From positions 1-39,139 of the forward strand of contig MRSU01000103.1 in the NCBI GenBank assembly GCA_008369845.1: a stretch of DNA of 39,139 bases, read 5' to 3'. Positions 1,611 through 39,139 of this stretch are shown here, piece after piece; position 1 is the first letter of the stretch; the number at the start of each line of letters is the position of its first letter. The DNA is from Trichomonas gallinae (lineage: Eukaryota). Below the pieces are notes generated by a model. The model was not told where the DNA came from. It ran no database searches and saw only the letters and a program-made list of their open reading frames with translations. The position numbers and the translations under genes are program-made.

Positions 1611-2717
1611 AAATGCTTATATATTTGATTTACTATCGATCTATTGCATGCAATTTCTATCTTAACATTGTTATCTTAAATATTATTACTTTCCAAAAAA
1701 AAAAATTGAATCACTATGTTATAGTAATACAACAAATATATATATATCTTCAAGCTATAAATAATGAAAAAATCATAACTAAAGCATAATATCTGAACAT
1801 TTAAAAATTTTGAAAATTATTAACTCGTTATTTGTGCCAAAATATTTTAAATCTCTGTTAAAGCTGCAGAGTACTTTTTAACAAATCCAAGATGCAAATA
1901 TGACTAGCTTGATCGAAATTTGTATAAAAATATAAAATTTGAGGTGGAGCTTGACGGATGGCTGCTATATAGCTAAGGATCCAACATTTCCTTAGCCAAA
2001 TCAAATAAAGGATTTACCGTATACGTATTTGACGGTGACCATAATCTAATGTAAGATTATATATTTGACAAATAAAATATTTACTTGACAAGAATTATCA
2101 TAATCCATTGAAAAATCCTTCAAAACGTGACATTTTATTTTAAAAAGTAGAAATTGCTATATTAGTTTTGTGCATGGACTGATTTGTAAAACGATTATTT
2201 TAGCAAGAAAATTGAATCTTCTCAAGTGGTCAAAAGTGACAAATCAATCTTTACAAAAAATCAATTGTTTTGAGAGGATGATTTGCTTACATCCGCTTGA
2301 TTGGAAAAATAATGACATAGATAAACATATATAATGTATTTTTTCTGGACATAGGGCCGCATGTAAATATCTTTCATCAGGGGCTTGTTATCATTGAGAT
2401 TTCGAAATTTTGAAGGTGTGAAACTCCGATAACAGACTGTTTTCTATACGGATTTAAGAATAGTATGTCTCGTAGTATTAAATATGGTGATTTATATTGA
2501 AATATTGTGTCTTTACATGTATTTAATCTCGAATTTAAAGAATTCTAAGTTAATAGAGAAGAATAAAAAGAAGAAAAGAAAGAAAAAAGGGAAAATACGG
2601 AATTCTACTGTTTTTATTAATAAAAAAATTATATTCCAGAAAATATGATAATCGATTTATCCTGGTAATGGAGGATGTGGGTTCCCTAGGGATTGGTTAA
2701 ATCACTGTGTGTGTGAT

Positions 2718-3578
2718 TTACTGTAACTTGCCGAGCTGCTCGAGGATAACTGCAGCAACTTCGAGCTGGCGCTTGCGGAGGTCCTCTGTGCTCATGGCGT
2801 GGCCGTTGGCATCAGAATTGACGACTGTGACGCAGGCAGCGTGGATGTCCTTGTTGACCTCTCTGAGAGCTGTCCAGTAGAGTGGATATGTATCCATTTC
2901 GAGAGAATCGATCTTGCCGAGCTCAGCTTGAACCTTCTCGAGAAGACCGTCTGTCTTGAAATCGAGATTGCCGACACCGCCGGAAGCAAGTGTTGGGGCG
3001 TTGACACCAGAGACGAAGGATGGGTTGGAAGCAACTCTGCCCTCGACTGTTGGGATGTTGGCAGCCTTGAGTCCCTCATTCAAAGCCTTAAGGAGTCCCT
3101 CGTGGGCTGGGACTGGCTTCTTGAAGAAGCGGTATGGTGTAGCGTTGTCCTTGTTGAATGTGTTGAAATCAAGCTCGTAGGCGACGCAATCCTTGACATT
3201 GATTGCTGTTCCGAGAGCGTGGCCAGCTGGGGATGGAGCAGCACCGAGCTGGATGAATGTGAGCTTGCCCTTTGTGATTGTACGAACTTCACGAACGAGG
3301 AAATCGATCATAGCGAAGCCGATACCGAAAGCGCAGATAGAGAGGCGCTTGCCCTTGTAGTGGCCTGTGAATGTTGTGTATCCACGGTTAGAGCGGAAGC
3401 AGAATGGCTCCTTCTCTTCGAAGAGCTTTGAGATCTGTTCGGCCAAGTAGTAATCTGTTGTGATGAGGAAATCGTTGGAGACCTCATCCTTTGTGCAGCC
3501 AAAGTGATATGGGCGTCCGTCCTTATCAACTGGAATTGTGTTGCCGCCCTTGCAAGAATCTGGATGCTGGAGAGTCAT
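2718..3578 (-). CDS. uridine phosphorylase / PNP_UDP_1 family protein, divergent active site
   Basis: DGRPYH, SNRGYTTFTGHYKGKRLSICAFGIG, MIDFLVRE and LEMDT segments fit the family. First in-frame ATG is at 3578 (the ORF track starts at a TTG). Strong C-ending codon bias. Confidence 0.8.
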   Translation of the reverse strand: MTLQHPDSCKGGNTIPVDKDGRPYHFGCTKDEVSNDFLITTDYYLAEQISKLFEEKEPFCFRSNRGYTTFTGHYKGKRLSICAFGIGFAMIDFLVREVRTITKGKLTFIQLGAAPSPAGHALGTAINVKDCVAYELDFNTFNKDNATPYRFFKKPVPAHEGLLKALNEGLKAANIPTVEGRVASNPSFVSGVNAPTLASGGVGNLDFKTDGLLEKVQAELGKIDSLEMDTYPLYWTALREVNKDIHAACVTVVNSDANGHAMSTEDLRKRQLEVAAVILEQLGKLQ

Positions 3579-3640
3579 CGAAATCTGAAAGTTAACAGAG
3601 CTATTCAATTTCTGATCGTTTTTTCTTTCATCGTTTCAGA

Positions 3641-3648
3641 AAAGTGAC
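3641..3648 (-). promoter_or_regulatory. initiator-like GTCACTTT (reverse complement of trichomonad motif AAAGTGAC) upstream of the phosphorylase
   Basis: Reads TCACT on the sense strand, matching the TCA(T/C)(T/A) initiator consensus. The same 8-mer occurs at 5043, 10050 and 23487 next to gene starts. Confidence 0.55.
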
Positions 3649-4290
3649 AAATTAAATCTCTTTTTTCCAAAATTACTACTATTTTCTGCATATATAACAA
3701 CTTTTGGATTTAGCTCAAAATTTTTGAAAGCAATTCTATATTTCATTAGATTTTATACTTTAACAATGACAAAATGTTTTTACATAACCCATTAAATTTT
3801 GAAATTGGGAGAAAAAAACAAAAAACTCAAATTTTTTGTGTTTTTGATTTTTTATTAACTTCGATTCTTGTAATGGGTTCTATACAAGCTATATAAATGA
3901 ATCCGTATTATGGTGGATTCCAACTGCCTGTAACCAGATTGGTAAGAAGTTCCTTAATTCCTAATGTTGAAATATCAAATGCTTATAGGTAGTATATAAA
4001 TAATAAATGGAAAATTGTAACATTATTTTTGAATCAGAAAAATGAAAAAAGTGAATCATTTTATTACAACACCTGTCATTAGAATGACCAATAATTGTAC
4101 TACAGTTGTATGCATTTTGCATAATTTTGATGGTAATGCTTTCGATTCATGTTTATGGTAAAGAAATAATTAAGGATTTCGAAAAATTGATCAAATGCCA
4201 CTCTAATATATGGATTTGGCATATTTATCCTCGGTTTATATAAATATTTGTTTTTATAAGATGTTTGACGTAATACAATATTTCATAATT

Positions 4291-5007
4291 TTATTCAACG
4301 ATAATGAATATGAACAACATCATGATTTGAATGCATATGCCATATATAGGCTTCATGCATGAAATAGGATCAGGATTGTAATGAATTATCGAAGCATCTT
4401 TATTACTTCCATAAAGCAGATGAAATTTGTTTATATTAACCATAGAAGCGTAGTTTCTGAATTCTATATACTCAATGTTGCTAATCGCGAAAAATTGCCA
4501 TGATTCAACATTATTTACAGTTGGGGGAAAATATATTTTTCGAAATTGGTCAGATTTAGCAAATGCAGCACAGGCAATACTCAGAGTGCCATAAGGAACA
4601 TACACAATTGTTTCTCCATGTCGTGGAGGCCAAAAATACAGAGTTTTTAGATCTTTTGTAAATAAAATCCCATCAATATCAGTAAAAAACTGATTTTCTT
4701 TATCCACGCAAACTTTTGATAGAACAGAAGTGCCATCAAATGCTTGCAAAGGGCTCAGCTTCATTACAGATTTTGGAAGATTCAAAATTGCAAGATGTCG
4801 AAGATTATCATTAATATCATTTCCAAATTCCGTTACATTATCATCAAATACAATCTTTGTTACTAATGGATAGTTTTTAAAACTATTATCTCCAATTTTA
4901 GTAAATCCTTGCATATATAGTATCTTTGCATCTGTGTGCTCATTGTAGCCAGCAAACTCATCATATCCATATATAACAAATGAGTCTGGCTCAGGGCCAT
5001 TAAACAT
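4291..5007 (-). CDS. short BspA-like (TpLRR/LRR_5) surface protein
   Basis: KIGDNSFKN, LPKSV, ENQFFTDIDGILFTKDLKTLYFWPP, VPYGTLSIACAAF; Cys followed by a hydrophobic C-terminal tail. First in-frame ATG at 5007; true start uncertain. Confidence 0.75.
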   Translation of the reverse strand: MFNGPEPDSFVIYGYDEFAGYNEHTDAKILYMQGFTKIGDNSFKNYPLVTKIVFDDNVTEFGNDINDNLRHLAILNLPKSVMKLSPLQAFDGTSVLSKVCVDKENQFFTDIDGILFTKDLKTLYFWPPRHGETIVYVPYGTLSIACAAFAKSDQFRKIYFPPTVNNVESWQFFAISNIEYIEFRNYASMVNINKFHLLYGSNKDASIIHYNPDPISCMKPIYGICIQIMMLFIFIIVE

Positions 5008-5137
5008 ATTTAAGATTGGCAAATTCAAATCATATGAATTAAAAAGTGACAAAATTTAAAAATTGACAAAATAACCTTATTTAAATAAATTGGGCCTCGA
5101 AAAATAAAAGAGGGTGCTATAAACGTACAAAAAAATT

Positions 5138-6205
5138 ATGTGGAAACTTGATTATCAAATACGCAGACATACAAAGCCAATCAACGCTGTTACGGTTTCC
5201 AATGATATGAAAATTATAATGTCAGCATCGGAAGATCATACAATCGGTATATTTGATCGAGAAAATCAAGATATTGATATTATCGAAGCACATGATGCTC
5301 CAATAACAGATATCAAACTTTCACCAAATGGCCAGTTGTTTGCAACTGCATCTACAGACAGAACAACAAAAATTTGGGATGTTAAATCTCATAAATCGAT
5401 TTTTACAACGAAAACACATAAACAAAGTGTATCAGCTGTTACATGGTTCCAAGATTCATCCAAAATTGCTACAGCATCCCATGATGGCTCAGTAATTCTC
5501 TGGGATGTGAAAGAACTCGAACGTTTATTGATAATGAATGGAATCAATGGATGGGTTAATGACGTACAAGTGCATGAAAACCTTATTGCCATGGCAGGAA
5601 ATGACAGAAACATTGTAATTTATGATGATAGAACTGGAAAAGTTGCGCAAAAACTAAATACACACACGGAAACAGATGTATCTTCCATTTCTTTCCATCA
5701 TTTAGGCTCTTGCATAGCTGCTAGTTCAAATGACAACAAAATCAGATTGTTTGATCTTCGTACAACAAATGTTGTTCGTAGACAACGTTGTCATAAAGAA
5801 GCAATTACTAGAGTTGCTTTTAATCCGTTTACAGATGACTATATTACTGTTGGCAAAGACGGCTTTGCAAGAATCTGGTCATTAAAGACAACAGACATTG
5901 TTCATTCATTCCAACAACACGAATCTGGCATAAACAATGTCACATGGTGTGCTGATGGAAAGCATTTCGCAACAGCTGGCGACGACAGAAAAATTTGCGT
6001 TTGGTATGAAAGTGAGTCTAACAATAACGATTTTGATGGTGGAGACATCCTCTCAACACTCGGCACGATACAGCAGCAGCTGAGAGTCCTGACAAGTGCA
6101 ATGAAAAGATTAGATGAGAGATTACTCATACAAGAAAGCAAAGTTAAGTTTTTGCAAGATATCGATAGACCAATAACGCGTGCATACAACAAAAAACCAA
6201 AATAA
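5138..6205 (+). CDS. POC1: WD40-repeat centriolar protein POC1-like
   Basis: Seven WD40 repeats plus a C-terminal coiled coil (LGTIQQQLRVLTSAMKRLDERLLIQESKV) resembling the Poc1 motif. Confidence 0.75.
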   Translation: MWKLDYQIRRHTKPINAVTVSNDMKIIMSASEDHTIGIFDRENQDIDIIEAHDAPITDIKLSPNGQLFATASTDRTTKIWDVKSHKSIFTTKTHKQSVSAVTWFQDSSKIATASHDGSVILWDVKELERLLIMNGINGWVNDVQVHENLIAMAGNDRNIVIYDDRTGKVAQKLNTHTETDVSSISFHHLGSCIAASSNDNKIRLFDLRTTNVVRRQRCHKEAITRVAFNPFTDDYITVGKDGFARIWSLKTTDIVHSFQQHESGINNVTWCADGKHFATAGDDRKICVWYESESNNNDFDGGDILSTLGTIQQQLRVLTSAMKRLDERLLIQESKVKFLQDIDRPITRAYNKKPK

Positions 6206-11384: not shown

Positions 11385-13980
11385 ATGTTGGAAATTTTTA
11401 AAATTTTGCTGTTGACACTTTTTAATTTATTCCAATGCACCATATTTTTTTTAATTAAAAATGAATTAAATAACAGATAATGTGCAAGATAGCCAATTTG
11501 TTTATTACAGTACTAATTTTGAAATCCTTATTTCTGTTCCAGAAGGAAAAGAAAATATTATCATTGATTCGCGAGCAAAATATATTGGCGAATTTGCGTT
11601 CAAATTAGTAAATAATACTTTAAATGAGTTCTCTTTTGGCCCAAATCCGAATTTAATCGAAATAAAAAATCAAGCATTTCAGAATTGCATAAAATTAACT
11701 CGAATCGATCTTTCAGCATGCACTAATTTAATAACAATAGGTCCGAAAGCTTTCTACAACTGTAAGAATGTCAGAGAACTGTTACTTGCAGAAGGATTAA
11801 TTACAATTAACGAAAGTTGCTTCGAATTCCTTAGTATTACTTCTGTTGAGATCCCATCTACATTGAAGTACATGGATTTAAGATGTTTTGCTGAATGCAC
11901 TCTACTAGAGTCAATGAAATTTCCTGATGAAAGCCAAGTTGAAGTTTTAAGCAGCCAAATGATGTATAATACAAAGATAACAACTTTCAACTTACCCAAA
12001 AATGTTAAAAAGATCGAAGGGTCTTTCCACCAAAAATCTAGAATATCAAAATTTACCATAGATCCAAGAAATTCAAATTTCGTAATAAAAAATGAAGCAA
12101 TATATAAAGCTTCCGAGCCAACTGTTTTGCTATGTTATCCGCCGCAGCTACCTGGAGATGTTGAAATACCAGAAGGTGTCACTAAAATAGAAGGCGCTGC
12201 CTTTATTTTTGCACAAATAAAAAATGTTAAGTGTCCTTCTACTCTTACTATCATTGAAAAATATGCTTTTGCAAGCTCAAAAATCAGTTCAATAAGCTTA
12301 CAAAACAACATAAAAGGATTATTTAGTAATTCTTTCCACAATTGCCCATATTTAACATCTATTGAGATGCCAAATTCCATAACATATCTTGGATCACATG
12401 TCTTTGAAAAATGCATAAGACTTTCTAACGTTACTTTATCTAATAATGTTAAAATATTAGAAATGAATTTATTCAAAGATTGTAATTTGACGAGTATTAG
12501 CATTCCTTCAAGTATCGCAACAATTAGAACAGGTTGTTTCATTGGTTGTTTGTATTTACCAGAAGTTACTCTTCCTGATTCTTTGACGACGTTAGAAGGA
12601 AATGCTTTTGAAATCACGACAAAATTATTATTTGGAGATAATTCCAATTTTTACATTTTGAATCAATGCTTAGTTCTAGATAAACAAAATACAACAGTCT
12701 CGTTGTATATAGGCCCAAATGATAACAGAAAATTAGAAATTCCGCAAACAGTTACAACAATTAAAAAAAGCGCATTTTACCAAAAAAGCTCTTTATCACA
12801 GATTTCATTCGGATCAAATTCCCAATTGGCTACAATAGAATCTAATGCATTCTATGGATGCCATAGCATGAGATTCGTTGGACTGTCTGAGAATCTTATT
12901 GGTATTGGAGAATTTTCATTCTATCAATGCTATAATTTATTAAATATCAATCTAAACAAAATCAGTATAATTGGAAAGAATGCTTTCGAGCAATGTCGTC
13001 TTCTTTCATCCATTGTATTTGAATCCTCTCCATTAAAGAATTTGTCAGAATATACATTCAGCTCGTGCGTGAAATTAACATCAATTCGTCTTCCATATGG
13101 AATTGGTTATATTGGCCAAAATTGTTTTGCGAATTGTGCAACATTATCTTCTGTTTCATTTCCATCCTCTTTGTCGACGATTGGCGAATTATGTTTCATT
13201 GGATGCGATTTGGCAAAAGCTGACATGTCCTCATGCACAAATTTGATATCTATACCTGCTTATTGTTTTTCAGATAACATTCATTTGTCAAATGTTTTAT
13301 TCCCGCCAAATCTTGATAATATTGAAACAAGATCATTTCAAGGAACATCATTAAAATCTGTCAATTTTCCTGTTTCTCTAACAACATTATCTGATTATTC
13401 ATTTGATTCATGTGCATCAATAAAAAGAATTTCTATCCCTGCTGGATCAATGCTATCATCAATTGGAATTGGTGCATTTAAAGGCTGCAAATCAATTTCA
13501 ACAATTAAATGCGACAGTGACAGATTTACATTATTCACTGGAGCACTTTTTGACAAAGATCTGAGCAATCTGTTGTTGTTCCCTCCGGCATCGAATATAT
13601 CTTTCTTTTCACTTCCTCCCAATACTCGCACGATAAAGAGCGGTGCTTTCTATGAATGCACTAACCTAATTTCTATACTGATTCCCAGTGACAGCATTCA
13701 CCAGATCAGTGAAAGTGCATTTGAAGGCTGTGCATCACTCAAAATGATTAACATACCTTCCTGCGTAACAAATATTGGTCCAAATGCATTCCTTGGCTGT
13801 TCCTCACTAATTTGCGGCGTTACAGTCGAATCAAAAAGTATGGAATTTCGTTCTAATCTTATCTCTATATCTATGCTTAATCCACATGCAATCAAAGAAT
13901 GCGTTCCAAATGTTTCATGTAAATCAGTTCAAACAGCTCATATACAATATTTCCTTTTATTTCCATTCATACTATTATAA
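11385..13980 (+). CDS. BspA-like TpLRR surface protein, 5' end frameshifted (possible pseudogene or assembly error)
   Basis: Many IxxxAFxxCxxLxxIxIP repeats and a Cys plus hydrophobic tail. The main frame opens at 11470 with no ATG for about 130 codons. A hydrophobic leader from ATG 11385 is in another frame. Confidence 0.85.
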
Positions 13981-23483: not shown

Positions 23484-23523
23484 TTTGTCACTTTTAATTC
23501 GAATGACAATAAATTTTTGACAG

Positions 23524-23686
23524 TTTTTTTGACAATATCATAAGGAATTTTGGCTTTTTGACGATTATTTGACATTGTAAAGTAATTTTGGCAAATTTAT
23601 TGTAAAGCACATTTTTTTTGACAAAATCATAAGGAATTTACAAAATTTGACAATTATTTGACATTGTAAAGCAAATTTGGCAAGTT
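23524..23686 (+). repeat. imperfect tandem duplication (about 89-bp period) rich in TTGACA
   Basis: TTTTTTTGACAA(T/A)ATCATAAGGAATTT...TTTGACATTGTAAAG..A.TTTGGCAA occurs twice; a third partial copy lies near 23875-23910. Confidence 0.8.
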
Positions 23687-24302
23687 TGTTATTTATGATT
23701 TTTTTTTTGACAATGAAGAAAAGATTGATACATCAGGAAATAACGCAATAGGTTGTAGTCGTCGTGAAAACTTGTAAACACACGAGATCCTGTAGATGAT
23801 AAGTTAGAGTTAAATTGCTTATGAGACTGACTTCGACATTAAGCTGCGGCAACAATTTTTTGCCCAAAATTTGCTTGACAAAATATTTGACATTGTAAAA
23901 TGATTTTGACAAAATACTTCACAATTTTATTATTTTGTAAAACAAAATTGGCAATTTTTCATTATGTGTGAATCAGTCGAAAGATAATCTTATTAACTCG
24001 AGCAGTATTGATAGACACAATTCTATTATCATTGATTTGATCATATGTCCATTACTTTTCATCAGATCTGAAATAGTTTAATTGTTCAGCTAAAATAGTT
24101 AAATTTTGTCGTTCTTTCTGAATTTGGTGAGCAAGCACTTCTTACAAATGCGTAAAGTGATGTTTATTTTAACTTGTTCATTTTTCGGTCGATTTATCCA
24201 TGTTATCCAAAAAGTTTAGATCATGAAAATTTTGAAAATAATCGTTTTCCTCTCAATTCTAAATATTGAAAAAATTATGTCACATCAAATCATTTTAGAA
24301 TA

Positions 24303-34681: not shown

Positions 34682-35197
34682 ATGGATGATCTTACGCAAA
34701 TCAGTATTCAAGGAATGTCAACGTATGGAGATTTGAATATGGAGAGTCAAGCACTACCTACTATGAACTCTCAGGCTGATAATAAAAAGATAAAGAGGCC
34801 GATGAACGCATTTTTATTGTTTTGTAAGGATAAAAGACAATCAACGCGCGGTGAAAACCCTGATATGAAAAATGTCGATGTTTCACAAGTTCTCGCTGAA
34901 CAATGGAAGAATCTTGACGACGCACAAAAATTACGTTATCGTGCTCTTGCAGCAGAACAACAGAAAGCATTCAAAGAAGAAAATCCAGATTATAAGTACG
35001 AAAAAGCCAAGGCGAAGCACCTATTAAATCGTCAAAAATTAAGACCTGAATTCAGGCACATTACAAATGTTCTCGATGTTAAGACGCTTCTTTCTATGAC
35101 TGTCGATGATGCTAAAGCATACTTGCTTTTCCTCACAACACAAACTGTTCCACAAAATCAAGTTAATGATCAACTCATTATGAATACGTATCAATAA
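34682..35197 (+). CDS. HMG-box protein (SOX/MATA-type box)
   Basis: KIKRPMNAFLLFCKDKR...NPDMKNVDVSQVLAEQWKNL...NPDYKY; first ATG at 34682. Confidence 0.92.
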   Translation: MDDLTQISIQGMSTYGDLNMESQALPTMNSQADNKKIKRPMNAFLLFCKDKRQSTRGENPDMKNVDVSQVLAEQWKNLDDAQKLRYRALAAEQQKAFKEENPDYKYEKAKAKHLLNRQKLRPEFRHITNVLDVKTLLSMTVDDAKAYLLFLTTQTVPQNQVNDQLIMNTYQ

Positions 35198-36122
35198 TGC
35201 ACAAAGTGCATCCCAATTTTCAAAGTGAACTGTAGTATTCACATGTATTTGACAATAATTATTTGATTGAATTGCGTTCATGAGAATTATCACACAACTC
35301 ATTGTGCTACATCATGAGCACAGTCAAAACATACGCATATGCATATTATAGGCTCATTAAATCAAAAGTTTTCAAAATCTGAACTCATAGAATAAGTTTT
35401 GCTTATATCTGCTCACACTATATAGAATAATACTTCCATTCGATGTAGTTTTTGATATACAACCAAAATATATATGCATTGGGTTTTAGAGTAATAAAAA
35501 TTTTTATCTATATATAATATAATGAAAGTTTTTAGACATCTGCCGATTATTATTGTTGTTAACAGAAAAACGCAACAAACACTGTTCATAAATTGATTCT
35601 CATTCTGAGAAAAATCACTGTGTCAAGAGCATTACTGATCTATTGCACTTCTTGAGACTGAAACCTGACCAAAATTGCATTCTTTAAAATGCAAAATGTT
35701 CTGTACAGAAATTGGGAACGAAGAAGAGAAGGGTTTACATGTCAGATTTGGCACGTATCTAAAAGTGACACTATAGACAGGGGCGCATCCATATCTGTCA
35801 CTTTTCAAATGATTTTGAAACTGCATTGTGTAATAAAATACTAAATTTTGTAGATAAAGAGTTTGAAGAAATGTAAGAAGATAGTGCCAGCGTCAGATAT
35901 GACACGCATATGATCTTCTTCTTGATAATCATCTTTTTGGAGCTCTTCTTGTTGATGTTTTTCTTCTTGACGATCTTCTTTAAATGGTTGTTAGAAATAT
36001 GATTAGTAAATTGGCATGTGAAACTGTTAAATGCTGCTGGAGGTAAGTACTAGTTGGTTGTTAGAAATAATATATGGCTCATTAAAAAATGAACGTTTAC
36101 TTTTTTTGTTAAATTTATAAAA

Positions 36123-36681
36123 ATGGAATATAAGGATCCAGGTTTTCAGAACATCGAAAATAATCATGCAGAGCTACTGACATCAATGTTCATGGACCAA
36201 TATGATACTATTGATTTCTTTTCTGAAAATATACTACACGAATCAGAATCTTTCCCATTAATTGAGGTGTTACATAACATTATTAGATCAGACGAATGTT
36301 TTGACGTGTATTGCTGATAAATAGACGATATAGAAGTTGTTGATCTATGTAGATTGTTTATTGCCCGGTTTGAACTTCCAAGACAAAGATCTTTATGAAA
36401 AAAATTTCATGTTGTTGTTCTTTAATTTAGCAATTGTCGTGGATGAAAGCGTGTACCATGGTATAGGCGAAATAACATCGCAAATTCTAGGAGATTTGTC
36501 TTTCTTATTTTTATCATGTTTTGTTCTCATGATACCTCAAGTTGGAACTCTAGAACTTCAATTGACTATCAAAGAAGAGCTCCAATCAGAACTTGATACA
36601 TATTTAGAATGGTATGAAGCAAAAGAAGATGAAAAGGAAGAAAATACGAGTCAAGCAGGTGACACTAAAAGACCTTATTAA
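36123..36681 (+). pseudogene. disrupted hypothetical ORF, possibly transposon cargo
   Basis: Two adjacent acidic ORF pieces (36123-36317 and 36337-36681) in different frames, ending just before the left inverted repeat. Confidence 0.4.
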
Positions 36682-36689
36682 AAAACAAC

Positions 36690-36755
36690 ATTATATATCT
36701 ATATTTAAAATGAAATTAAGTTTTTGATCGTATGGTTATTTTCTTTTCAAAAAAA
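36690..36755 (+). repeat. left arm of inverted repeat flanking the tyrosine recombinase gene
   Basis: Core 36718-36755 matches the reverse complement of 37723-37760 at 35/38 positions; outer ATTATATATC...AAAATGAAA also matches. Confidence 0.9.
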
Positions 36756-36801
36756 GTTAAATAATTTTCACTTCACATTTGAAATGACTTTATTTTTAAA
36801 A

Positions 36802-37673
36802 ATGCAGTCCTTCGAACAATACAAACAGTCTGCAGAACTAATTAAACAGAACTCACTGCAGCCCAACTCAAGGAATATGTATGATACATGCCTTAAACAG
36901 TATCAGAATTTCACAAAAAAAACTCCAGTCCTTCCCTTTAACGCCAAATAAGATAATTCCATTCTTCGAATTCCTACGAAAAGAGAAATGCTACACTTAT
37001 AAAATAATTGCCAATTACTTGCACAGTTTCCACAACTATTATATTACCCATCCTGATTCTTACACCCAAGATCCAACAAAGAACCTTGAAGTTAAGCAAT
37101 ACATGATCGGCTTGATCCGCACCATGCATGGGGGATCACCCCCGAATCGAAAAGAATCTGTCACAATTCGACAACTTGACCAAATATCAGAAATAATCAA
37201 TTTAAATAATGACAAAGAAATACGTGATATGGCATTAATGTCTTGTCTATATTCTGCATTTTTAAGAATTTTGGAAGCATTGAATCTCAAATTTAGCGAT
37301 TTTAACTGTAAAGAAGATTTTCTTATCATCCTTATCAGATTTTCTAAAACAGTTCCAGATGGAAAAGGATCCAAAGTGTTCATAAGGAAAACTGATTCTC
37401 CTCATGATTGTCACAAATGGGTAACCCTTTTCTTTTCCAAATGTCATTTTGCACCCGATAAAATTTTCCCAATAACACCATGCACTGCCAACAAGCGTAT
37501 TCATTTGTACTTACATCGAATTGGAACCAATGGAAAGAAAATTTCTCCCCTTTCTTTCAGACGTAGTGGCGCATTGTTGTCAAGACTCTTCCATCAAAGT
37601 TCATAGTAGATGGAAGAGCTATTGCTACCGAATGTATACTTCATTATCTAGTGAGAAGCTGGCACTATTATAA
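36802..37673 (+). pseudogene. tyrosine recombinase (phage integrase family), two frameshifts
   Basis: N-terminal NSLQPNSRNMYDTCLKQYQNF, frameshift in the A8 run 36915-36922, then AFLRILE (R), RFSKT (K), PLSFRRSGA (HxxR with His replaced). A second shift gives IKVHSRWKSYCYRMY (W, catalytic Y). Confidence 0.88.
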
Positions 37674-37722
37674 CACCAAATTTATGAATAAAAATTATTT
37701 TTGACGATTATTTCGAATTCAA

Positions 37723-37785
37723 TTTTTTTGAAAAGAAAATAATCGTATGATCAAAAACTTTTTCATTTTGAATGCGATATATAAT
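37723..37785 (-). repeat. right arm of inverted repeat flanking the tyrosine recombinase gene
   Basis: Reverse complement of the 36690-36755 arm with few substitutions and small indels. Confidence 0.9.
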
Positions 37786-38199
37786 TGCAATTTTAATTAT
37801 ATTAATTGTTGAAATATCCGCTGCCTCATACAGCCGAGACTTTGCTGGAGGAACCAGAAGTGCATGTGTGGGCAGCAGGAAACAACAAGAGCGTTAATAA
37901 AGACAGAGGAATCTGAGCAACGAGTACAAGCAAGTCTCAAAAGACCAAAAACATTACAGAAGCTATTTACATATCAAGCGACACCTAGACAATACCAAAA
38001 AGAAATTTGGCGAATCCTGTCCTGAAATACAATTCATCGTATATTAATGGAGTTGTATTGTTCATGCAGCCTTGGAAAATATACGTTTCAAAAGTCAGGT
38101 TGGTAAAAAATTTGATAACCCTCATAGAATAATTCATTGAGTAGTATTGAAAAAGTTGTCACTTTTCAGATCTGACTTATGAAACAACAAAGTGTTTTA

Positions 38200-39070
38200 C
38201 TAGATATCATGAAGTTTACCAACACTCATGTATTGCAAAATAGTATTAAAATCTTCGTTTCTTTCATTGAATACATTCGATATTTGCTGATCATGAAGAA
38301 AGTCTTTAATATTCATACGAGCTTTAAATTCTGAATAATTTTCATATATTTGCATTATAATTGATTTAAGTTGTTGATGAGCAGCTCTAAGAATATTGTA
38401 TGCGTTGGTAAATTTAAGATCTTTCACTAAATTAATAATTTGATCGTGAAAATCCAAATAAAATGTCAAAAATTCTGCGTGTGGTAAGTCTTGCATTATA
38501 TACTCATCTAATTTTTGTTCTGCCCTTATCTGCAGCATTTCTAAATGAGGGCGAAGTTCGTCTATGATCGATTCAATTGCCTCCTTTTGCAATGATTTTA
38601 GTCTATGTCGTTGGTCAACAAGAATTTCATCCACAAGTGCGATGTGCTCAGTCAAGAACTGTCTTCCTTTCGCTTGGTTACGAAGAAGATCATTTATCTG
38701 TGCACCCTTGCGAAGAAAGACTTATTTACAACGACGATGAAATGAATCAATTAAAGCATTGATTGTTTTGAATGGAATTGTATCCCAAATAAACTTTACT
38801 CGTCTAAATAATTCTTCTGCGTTTTTTGGATTTTTCTGGTATCTGTAAAGTCTCTTTTTAATGATTGCCTATACCATTTCAATCGGATTAAGACATGGAC
38901 TATTCGCTGGCCATCCATAATAAATATTAACGCTTTGTAGAAGCTGTTTAATTGGAATATCTTTCGTGTGGCATGGTGCACCATCTTGGACAAGATACCA
39001 GTTTCGAGAACCAAACATTGAATCAGAAGTTAGTAATAAGAAATTCGCAGTACAATGGATTCACCATTCT
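38200..39070 (-). mobile_element. IS630/Tc1-mariner DD34E transposase pseudogene with long C-terminal extension
   Basis: Single frame: WYLVQDGAPCHT...GWPANSPCLNPIEMV*AIIK...WDTIPFKTINALIDSFHRRCK*VFLRKG, continuing into ORF 38200-38655. D at 38983-38985 and E at 38878-38880 are separated by 34 residues. Confidence 0.88.
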
Positions 39071-39139
39071 ACTTCGAATTTCTAAAAGTGTCATTAGTAA
39101 AGTTCACAAATTCAAAAATTGACGTTTGTAAATTTCTTA

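Follow-up and report, generated by a model that had tools for sequence, protein, structure and literature searches.

Towards the end of a 39,139-nt stretch of DNA from Trichomonas gallinae (contig MRSU01000103.1, positions 1 to 39,139; this whole stretch is called the window hereafter), a decayed gene for a Cre-like tyrosine recombinase (YR) lies between the two arms of an inverted repeat. We tentatively propose, with a probability of roughly 0.45, that positions 36690-37785 constitute a mobile element of about 1.1 kb, bounded by this inverted repeat and carrying the YR as its only gene, which lies among transposon debris and beside a probably unrelated Tc1 relic. In this view the boxed unit is likely a small DNA transposon in a copy that is no longer active. 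The inverted repeat is the main feature of the region, and it was overlooked in the initial annotation, which had combined the YR, an IS630/Tc1-type transposase and further open reading frames (ORFs) into a single Tec-like composite. That description holds insofar as it concerns relics of mobile elements in a genome of parabasalid type; the single composite is disfavoured, since the YR has ends of its own and this arrangement is repeated at another locus (L003).

The boxed recombinase gene

The features on which the proposal rests are the following:
36690-36762, plus strand: left arm of the inverted repeat, its outer edge beginning ATTA; aligns with the right arm at 86% identity over 66 nt (blastn E-value, E, 1e-14)
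36802-37673, plus strand: decayed Cre-like YR gene of about 290 codons, with frameshifts near 36920 and 37575, Leu for the His of HxxR, and another in-frame ATG at 36784
37717-37785, minus strand: right arm of the inverted repeat, its outer edge ending TAAT; matched by many short, high-depth contigs of a close relative (X1)

The identification of the YR gene is confirmed by the Pfam family Phage_integrase, which matches the main frame (E 6e-6), and by tblastn with seven intact relatives, which span 36802-37673 (+) in three frames. XerD and Cre are among the solved structures that match it, and of the catalytic residues it retains R, K, R and Y. As had been reported, no reverse transcriptase (RT) is visible, either in the six-frame translation of 35200-39139 or in Pfam scans. 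The hallmark of DIRS, Ngaro and VIPER elements, an RT and gag beside the YR, was found neither in 35200-39139 nor inside the boxed units of the window and L003.

The inverted repeat boxing this gene ranks top of the 190 found in the window, and its pair score is 86, whereas none of 2,914 control pairs of AT-rich window tiles scored above 54. When 11 segments of the window were aligned pairwise in both orientations, the arm pair alone stood clearly above shuffles. The arms enclose the YR gene and nothing else, with 39 nt between the left arm and the ATG and 43 nt between the stop and the right arm, giving a unit of 1,096 nt. Enzymes of the Cre type recombine palindromic sites that have a core of 6-8 bp. 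No lox-like palindrome of 13-8-13 form was detected in the arms, which fold no better than shuffles, and no direct repeat of 4-6 bp lies outside them.

A metagenome scan yielded three contigs with genes of the same family (L001, L002 and L003). L003 carries an intact ORF of 303 aa, a distant relative of the window YR, within a unit of 1,162 nt whose 80-bp arms are 91% identical (E 2e-27) and stand 53 and 38 nt from the gene; the contig stops one base beyond the right arm. ATTA stands at each of the four arm edges in the window and L003, both units starting with ATTA and ending with TAAT. The boxed layout is present in both copies with enough 3' flank (window and L003), and the L001 and L002 contigs end 4-19 nt past the stop codon, so that any 3' arm would lie outside reach in two of the four copies. 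The YR of L002 has an in-frame stop. At positions 74-109 of L003, just outside the left arm of its unit, two 11-bp arms separated by 14 nt make up a hairpin (z -4.4).

Sequence from the close relative X1 comes from one public run, at about 27x and with host genes about 94% identical. Its summed contig depth reaches 2,000-6,000 over the right arm (bin mean 2,013) and over two further places, 35574-35905 and 38070-38204, compared with about 24-27x for unique DNA; this sum indicates roughly that many short contigs of similar sequence exist, and it is not a copy number. X1 cover is nearly nil over the YR interior (36855-37664), to which no evidential weight was given. Abundance of the arm sequence in X1 is what would be seen if a stray YR gene, for instance a DIRS/Ngaro remnant, had by accident come to lie between two inserted copies of a common short repeat, and YRs of DIRS/Ngaro type do appear among the weaker matches of the family searches. 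We regard such an accident as very improbable, taking into account that L003 shares the geometry with largely different arm sequence, and that the family consists of complete genes of about 300 aa with their own ATG and an initiator-like motif, without RT fusions.

The TA at the unit edges is compatible with a target duplication, but it is indistinguishable from the arm itself. Another reading is that a Tc1/mariner transposase acting in trans could move the boxed unit as a TA-flanked element with terminal inverted repeats (TIRs), its YR gene being either cargo or what is left of a composite after deletion. An AT/TA/AT target would let each unit be read as TA-element-TA, a Tc1 relic adjoins, and the high X1 depth over the arm would fit a spread like that of miniature inverted-repeat transposable elements. 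The region upstream of the L002 YR contains TACAGTTG, presumably a Tc1-like end; this end has no above-chance match in the window. However, the bases inside the TA differ between the window and L003 and mostly miss the Tc1 end consensus, and a catalytic set kept across about 30% identity needs a use for the enzyme. Movement in trans is, in our estimation, quite unlikely.

The recombinase family and its distribution

An index-free protein search with the window YR returned 142 proteins at E ≤0.001, the best of them about 300 aa long and 30-38% identical, with one fragment at 54%; a word-index search with the broken YR frame gave no match. A profile search added further members, and the Cre-like family comprises at least 80 proteins of about 300 aa. 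A more distant YR of 475 aa (P0226), with a PHD finger (PF00628), was seen among the profile matches. In a FastTree phylogeny of 142 rows, built from near-full-length matches with six cluster duplicates omitted and no Tec, Sardine or Crypton sequences included, the window YR falls within a clade of 86 rows (SH support 93), the Xer-like and the animal DIRS/Ngaro-like rows being placed elsewhere. The window and L003 enzymes belong to different sub-branches of this clade (SH 87 and 89).

An alignment of 83 sequences shows R, K and R invariant, with H and Y in at least 90%; the catalytic set is thus kept by the family across about 30% identity, the window copy being without its His. Family proteins consist of core-binding and catalytic domains only, and no RT fusion occurs among the close matches. 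Together with the R-K-H-R-H/W-Y set, complete in the family and lacking His in the window copy, these two domains are the hallmarks of Cre-type enzymes. The family profile aligns with Cre across positions 19-299 (E 3e-21), and a structure model (mean predicted local confidence, pLDDT, 95.6) superposes best on Cre, with a TM-score of 0.74-0.80. Pfam scans of the window frame, P0005 and 20 other matches found only Phage_integrase/SAM domains and one weak DUF3435.

With regard to distribution, scans for the YR family gave no match in prokaryote genomes or in phages, a single distant match (31%, L004) in viral contigs, and four weak matches (24-34%) in plasmids. Six fragment proteins of Tritrichomonas musculus, at four loci on three contigs of 5.6-9.0 Mb, are 95-100% identical to intact members. 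Proteins of this species occur in two of the ten clusters of one look-up, and the ten clusters of another contain no named eukaryote. The split T. musculus copies at scattered loci and the stop in L002 are what is expected of a mobile element that has dispersed and is decaying.

Full-length family genes tend to occupy short contigs: for 32 of 42, the contig has no more than 600 nt of non-coding sequence (median 345), versus 8 of 31 for the other YRs of the same search (median 1,897), after eight fragments below 280 aa were dropped and with P0192 and P0226, one per side, not included. These short contigs fit a unit of about 1.1-1.3 kb, but coverage confounds the contrast.

The Tc1 relic and the surrounding debris

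The remaining features between the last host-like gene and the window end are these:
35574-35905, no strand: two short pieces, about 35574-35697 and about 35778-35905, matched by many high-depth X1 contigs
36123-36681, plus strand: disrupted ORF of unassigned kind, beyond the left arm, with a diverged match in X1
37810-38110, no strand: sequence earlier called ORF-like; coding unsupported
38070-38204, no strand: short piece matched by many high-depth X1 contigs, abutting the end of the transposase frame
38200-38721, minus strand: open helical tail in the transposase frame, 173 codons without a stop, family unassigned
38725-39139, minus strand: 3' part of a DD34E Tc1/IS630-type catalytic domain, with the second D and the E seen, an internal stop and a probable frameshift near 39030; the 5' part is past the window end
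39039-39083, no strand: hairpin in the transposase relic, with a 20-bp stem, two mismatches and a 5-nt loop (z -6.5)

The minus-strand DD34E transposase was correctly recognised beforehand: its frame matches Pfam DDE_3 (E 6e-5), it shares 40% identity over 100 aa with an intact Tc1-like protein of 342 aa (E 8e-20), and 34 residues separate the second D from the E. The DNA-binding part and the first D lie past the window end, which leaves two of three catalytic residues in view. It converges on the YR gene at a measured distance of 527 bp, in agreement with the 530 bp given previously, and the statement that both genes are similarly decayed is only roughly true. The YR has two frameshifts and the transposase two in-frame stops. 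One arm of the hairpin at 39039-39083 reads well as transposase and the other poorly, as in a template-switch copy.

The transposase frame of the window runs about 160 residues past the end of its intact relative. The 173 open codons of this tail have a chance of about 1e-6 from base composition; the tail is predicted to be helical at low confidence (single-sequence model, pLDDT 50), matches no Pfam family, and in the Atlas gave low recognition, with helical-bundle look-alikes only. It is present also in the X1 copy, where the match ends one codon before the stop. The tail may formerly have been longer, and the repeat at 38070-38204 may have cut it short. Window and X1 transposases differ at 46 positions in about 820 nt, and 9 of the 21 differences listed are synonymous, versus 19-25% expected (P 0.011-0.053), which gives some sign that the tail could be under selection.

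These data bear on the proposal that YR and transposase belong to one multi-gene Tc1-type composite (like Tec, Sardine or MarCry), moved by the DD34E enzyme and with the YR flipping or resolving an arm-bounded cassette. Several observations would suit it. The ORF at 36123-36681, the YR and the transposase are all decayed and lie within 3 kb, and the tail of the transposase is unusual and shows some sign of selection. A Cre-like enzyme inverts inverted sites, and the end of the L003 contig at the arm edge suits an inversion break. The X1 contig through the host gene ending at 35197 departs from the window after that position and continues with 8 kb of unlike sequence, like the empty site of a large insertion, although this departure is either a synteny break or such a site. 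Composites of DDE transposase and YR have, moreover, already been described.

A fixed composite would, however, have consequences in X1. The X1 transposase contig (2,974 nt, 24x) matches the window between 39024 and 38205, interrupted by 265 inserted nt at 38487, and if the arrangement were fixed its remainder should extend about 600 nt into the YR; instead, the remaining 1,136 nt past 38205 are unmatched to 37800-38069 or 37260-37664. This copy is the only other one seen, and it possibly has an insertion of its own at 38205. With that reservation, a fixed arrangement of YR and transposase is not reproduced in the sole other transposase copy (n=1), and the YR loci found are too short to bear on it. 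In addition, no outer TIR pair was found within the window by inverted-repeat listing, end search or segment alignments, in keeping with the earlier remark that outer termini could not be identified there; one end of such a composite would lie past the window end. Nothing in the window matches the 166-nt left flank of L003, other DNA amounts to 1.4 kb or more in only 3 of 42 family contigs, and the YR composites of Paramecium have mostly D32E spacing and a shared ORF2. Taking both sides into account, we hold the composite to be unlikely and the DD34E relic to be probably a neighbour outside the YR unit. The idea that the recombinase resolves or inverts internal sites survives in part: it probably acts on nearby inverted sites, which flank its gene.

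The window as a whole has 33% GC and is a gene-dense stretch of intronless protist genes, the last host-like one being the HMG-box gene that ends at 35197; from there to the window end only broken frames occur, and the region resembles an accumulation of small repeats and relics. Initiator- and M2-like promoter motifs, together with the T. musculus members of the YR family, point to a parabasalid host. Two further ORFs had been suggested, and only the first has some support. For 36123-36681, codon use is coding-like in two of three tested pieces (2.7% and 0 of 1000 intergenic draws as high), and no family matched in Pfam scans, an Atlas lookup of the ORF at 36334-36678 being uninformative; shorter, diverged X1 contigs match 36001-36107 and 36361-36632. 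For 37810-38110 coding is not supported, the best of three plus frames being equalled by 10.5% of draws, and no Pfam family. The codon-use test is weak, the YR core also going unflagged (18% of draws as high).

A possible lysine-rich broken ORF at 35798-36086 (-), not significant in the codon test, diverges from the ORF at 36123 over a gap of about 37 nt and contains a 15-nt direct repeat at 35985 and 36055. The pieces in 35574-35905 are likely ends of small non-autonomous elements; 35574-35697 and 35778-35905 appear as facing ends of small repeats, and loose ends in X1 and the window suggest CAGGGG-type termini, which we take to be hAT-like. No partner end for these pieces was found within the window, where a search allowing up to three mismatches gave no further copy of the 14-nt end at 35778. 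A direct-orientation likeness between 35795-35840 and 38156-38205 was rejected (p 0.02, uncorrected among about 110 comparisons). When 35200-39139 was compared with the window itself by tblastx, no second copy came up. Elsewhere, two tandem copies of 89 nt, 80% identical and rich in TTTGACA motifs, lie between genes at 23520-23697, TGTCA/TGACA motifs recurring in many intergenic regions. Leucine-rich-repeat proteins, presumably BspA-like from their appearance, are encoded at 11872-13980 (+) and 4291-5007 (-).

Relation to known elements and significance

Integration through a circle junction is known for integrases of the Tn916/Tn1549 type. For the YR-only element proposed here, the recombinase would bind both arms and join the two ends into a circle junction through a short AT-rich core at the ATTA...TAAT edges. 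The circle would then integrate into AT-rich DNA, as has been proposed for Cryptons (PMC3212892), and arm-only derivatives could multiply in trans. The data fit self-excision and self-inversion of the boxed unit equally. In Cre chemistry, two complete inverted sites give inversion and not excision; excision would thus require that each end be a half-site completed by host DNA.

Several points weigh against a YR-only mobile element. Only two complete units are available, and no empty site, circle junction, target duplication or movement has been seen. The inverted arms suit an invertible cassette equally well, and the edge TA a Tc1-type target duplication. The pieces in 35574-35905 and 38070-38204, as deep as the arm in X1, could be parts of one larger element, and the X1 transposase copy, which already has the insertion at 38487, could carry another at 38205. 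Arm likeness between family members is visible in alignment but weak: the window arms take ranks 1 and 6 among 631 tiles scored pairwise, by narrow margins, and a profile of the L001-L003 arms is not significant on them (nhmmer E 6). The contig contrast is confounded by coverage: a Tc1 cluster from the same kind of source is also found on contigs of 0.5-2.3 kb.

Compared by description only, the boxed unit resembles Euplotes Tec3, a developmentally excised element of about 4.5 kb with long TIRs of about 260 bp, in having a YR without a DDE gene, and differs from it in being only about 1.1 kb long. That Tec3 encodes a YR without the DDE gene of Tec1/2 is listed in PMC3212892. Eukaryotic YRs are rare, their described carriers being the 2-micron plasmid, Tec, DIRS/Ngaro/VIPER, Cryptons and Starships (PMC3212892, PMC13465315). 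Cryptons are YR-only eukaryotic DNA transposons without TIRs and with direct repeats of 4-6 bp (PMC3212892, PMC13465315). Like them, the boxed unit has a single YR as its only mobility enzyme, with no RT or DDE gene inside it in the window or L003, and circle-type movement would be common to both. Unlike them, it has inverted arms of about 70-80 bp in both testable copies, and its enzyme gives a Phage_integrase/Cre-like match, with no DUF3504 or GCR1_C in Pfam. The boxed unit works most like a Crypton, failing the no-TIR feature.

Tec1/2 elements have TIRs of about 700 bp, three ORFs and a DD34E transposase (PMC7325037), and Sardine and Thon have palindromic TIRs of 425-700 bp, a DDE gene and a YR (PMC3464196). 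The likeness to them lies in a YR beside an IS630/Tc1 DDE gene and in extra ORFs, with DD34E as in Tec; those elements, however, measure 5-7 kb and have TIRs around all their genes, whereas here short arms box the YR alone. The YR composites of Paramecium have mostly D32E spacing and a common ORF2 (PMC5405496). MarCry-1_FO of Fusarium holds a Mariner transposase and a Crypton YR within 16-bp TIRs, with a TA duplication (PMC3212892). It shares with the window a DDE gene and a YR in one neighbourhood and TA edges, but its TIRs surround both genes and its YR is of CryptonF type. The joint presence of DDE transposase and YR, taken earlier as characteristic of ciliate Tec1/Tec2 elements, is thus also a feature of Paramecium Sardine/Thon and Fusarium MarCry-1_FO. 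Cre of phage P1, a simple two-domain recombinase, is the best full-length match in sequence and fold, but identity is 13-17% and no lox-like palindrome was detected in the arms.

No parabasalid YR element was found in the literature searched, although Repbase, subscription papers or supplements may describe one. The accessible main text of two papers on parabasalid genomes (PMC13735942, PMC12589397) contains no recombinase, integrase, Crypton or DIRS, and the table of transposable elements of T. vaginalis in PMC7845603 lists no YR element. Nothing on such an element appears in the accessible parts of PMC6431247, PMC3537659, PMC5718144, PMC10045372 and bioRxiv 2024.06.04.597373. The boxed unit is likely an apparently undescribed small jumping gene of trichomonad-type protists, a minimal, inverted-repeat-bounded variant of the YR-driven DNA transposons. 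It is conceivable, and we advance it with some hesitation, that parabasalids carry a large, undescribed group of transposons of about 1.1 kb, each with one Cre-like YR between TIRs, plus arm-only derivatives, separate from Cryptons, DIRS and Tec.

Were the composite true instead, a transposon with DDE and YR genes would exist outside ciliates and fungi, and the role of the Tec recombinase would become testable. If the YR-only element is real, its inverted ends would add an architecture to transposon classification, and dozens of Cre-like enzymes adapted to eukaryotes would become available for direct assay, each together with short candidate target sites of its own. Parabasalid genomes contain 17-30% of unclassified repeats, and YR mini-elements of this kind would explain part of that DNA.

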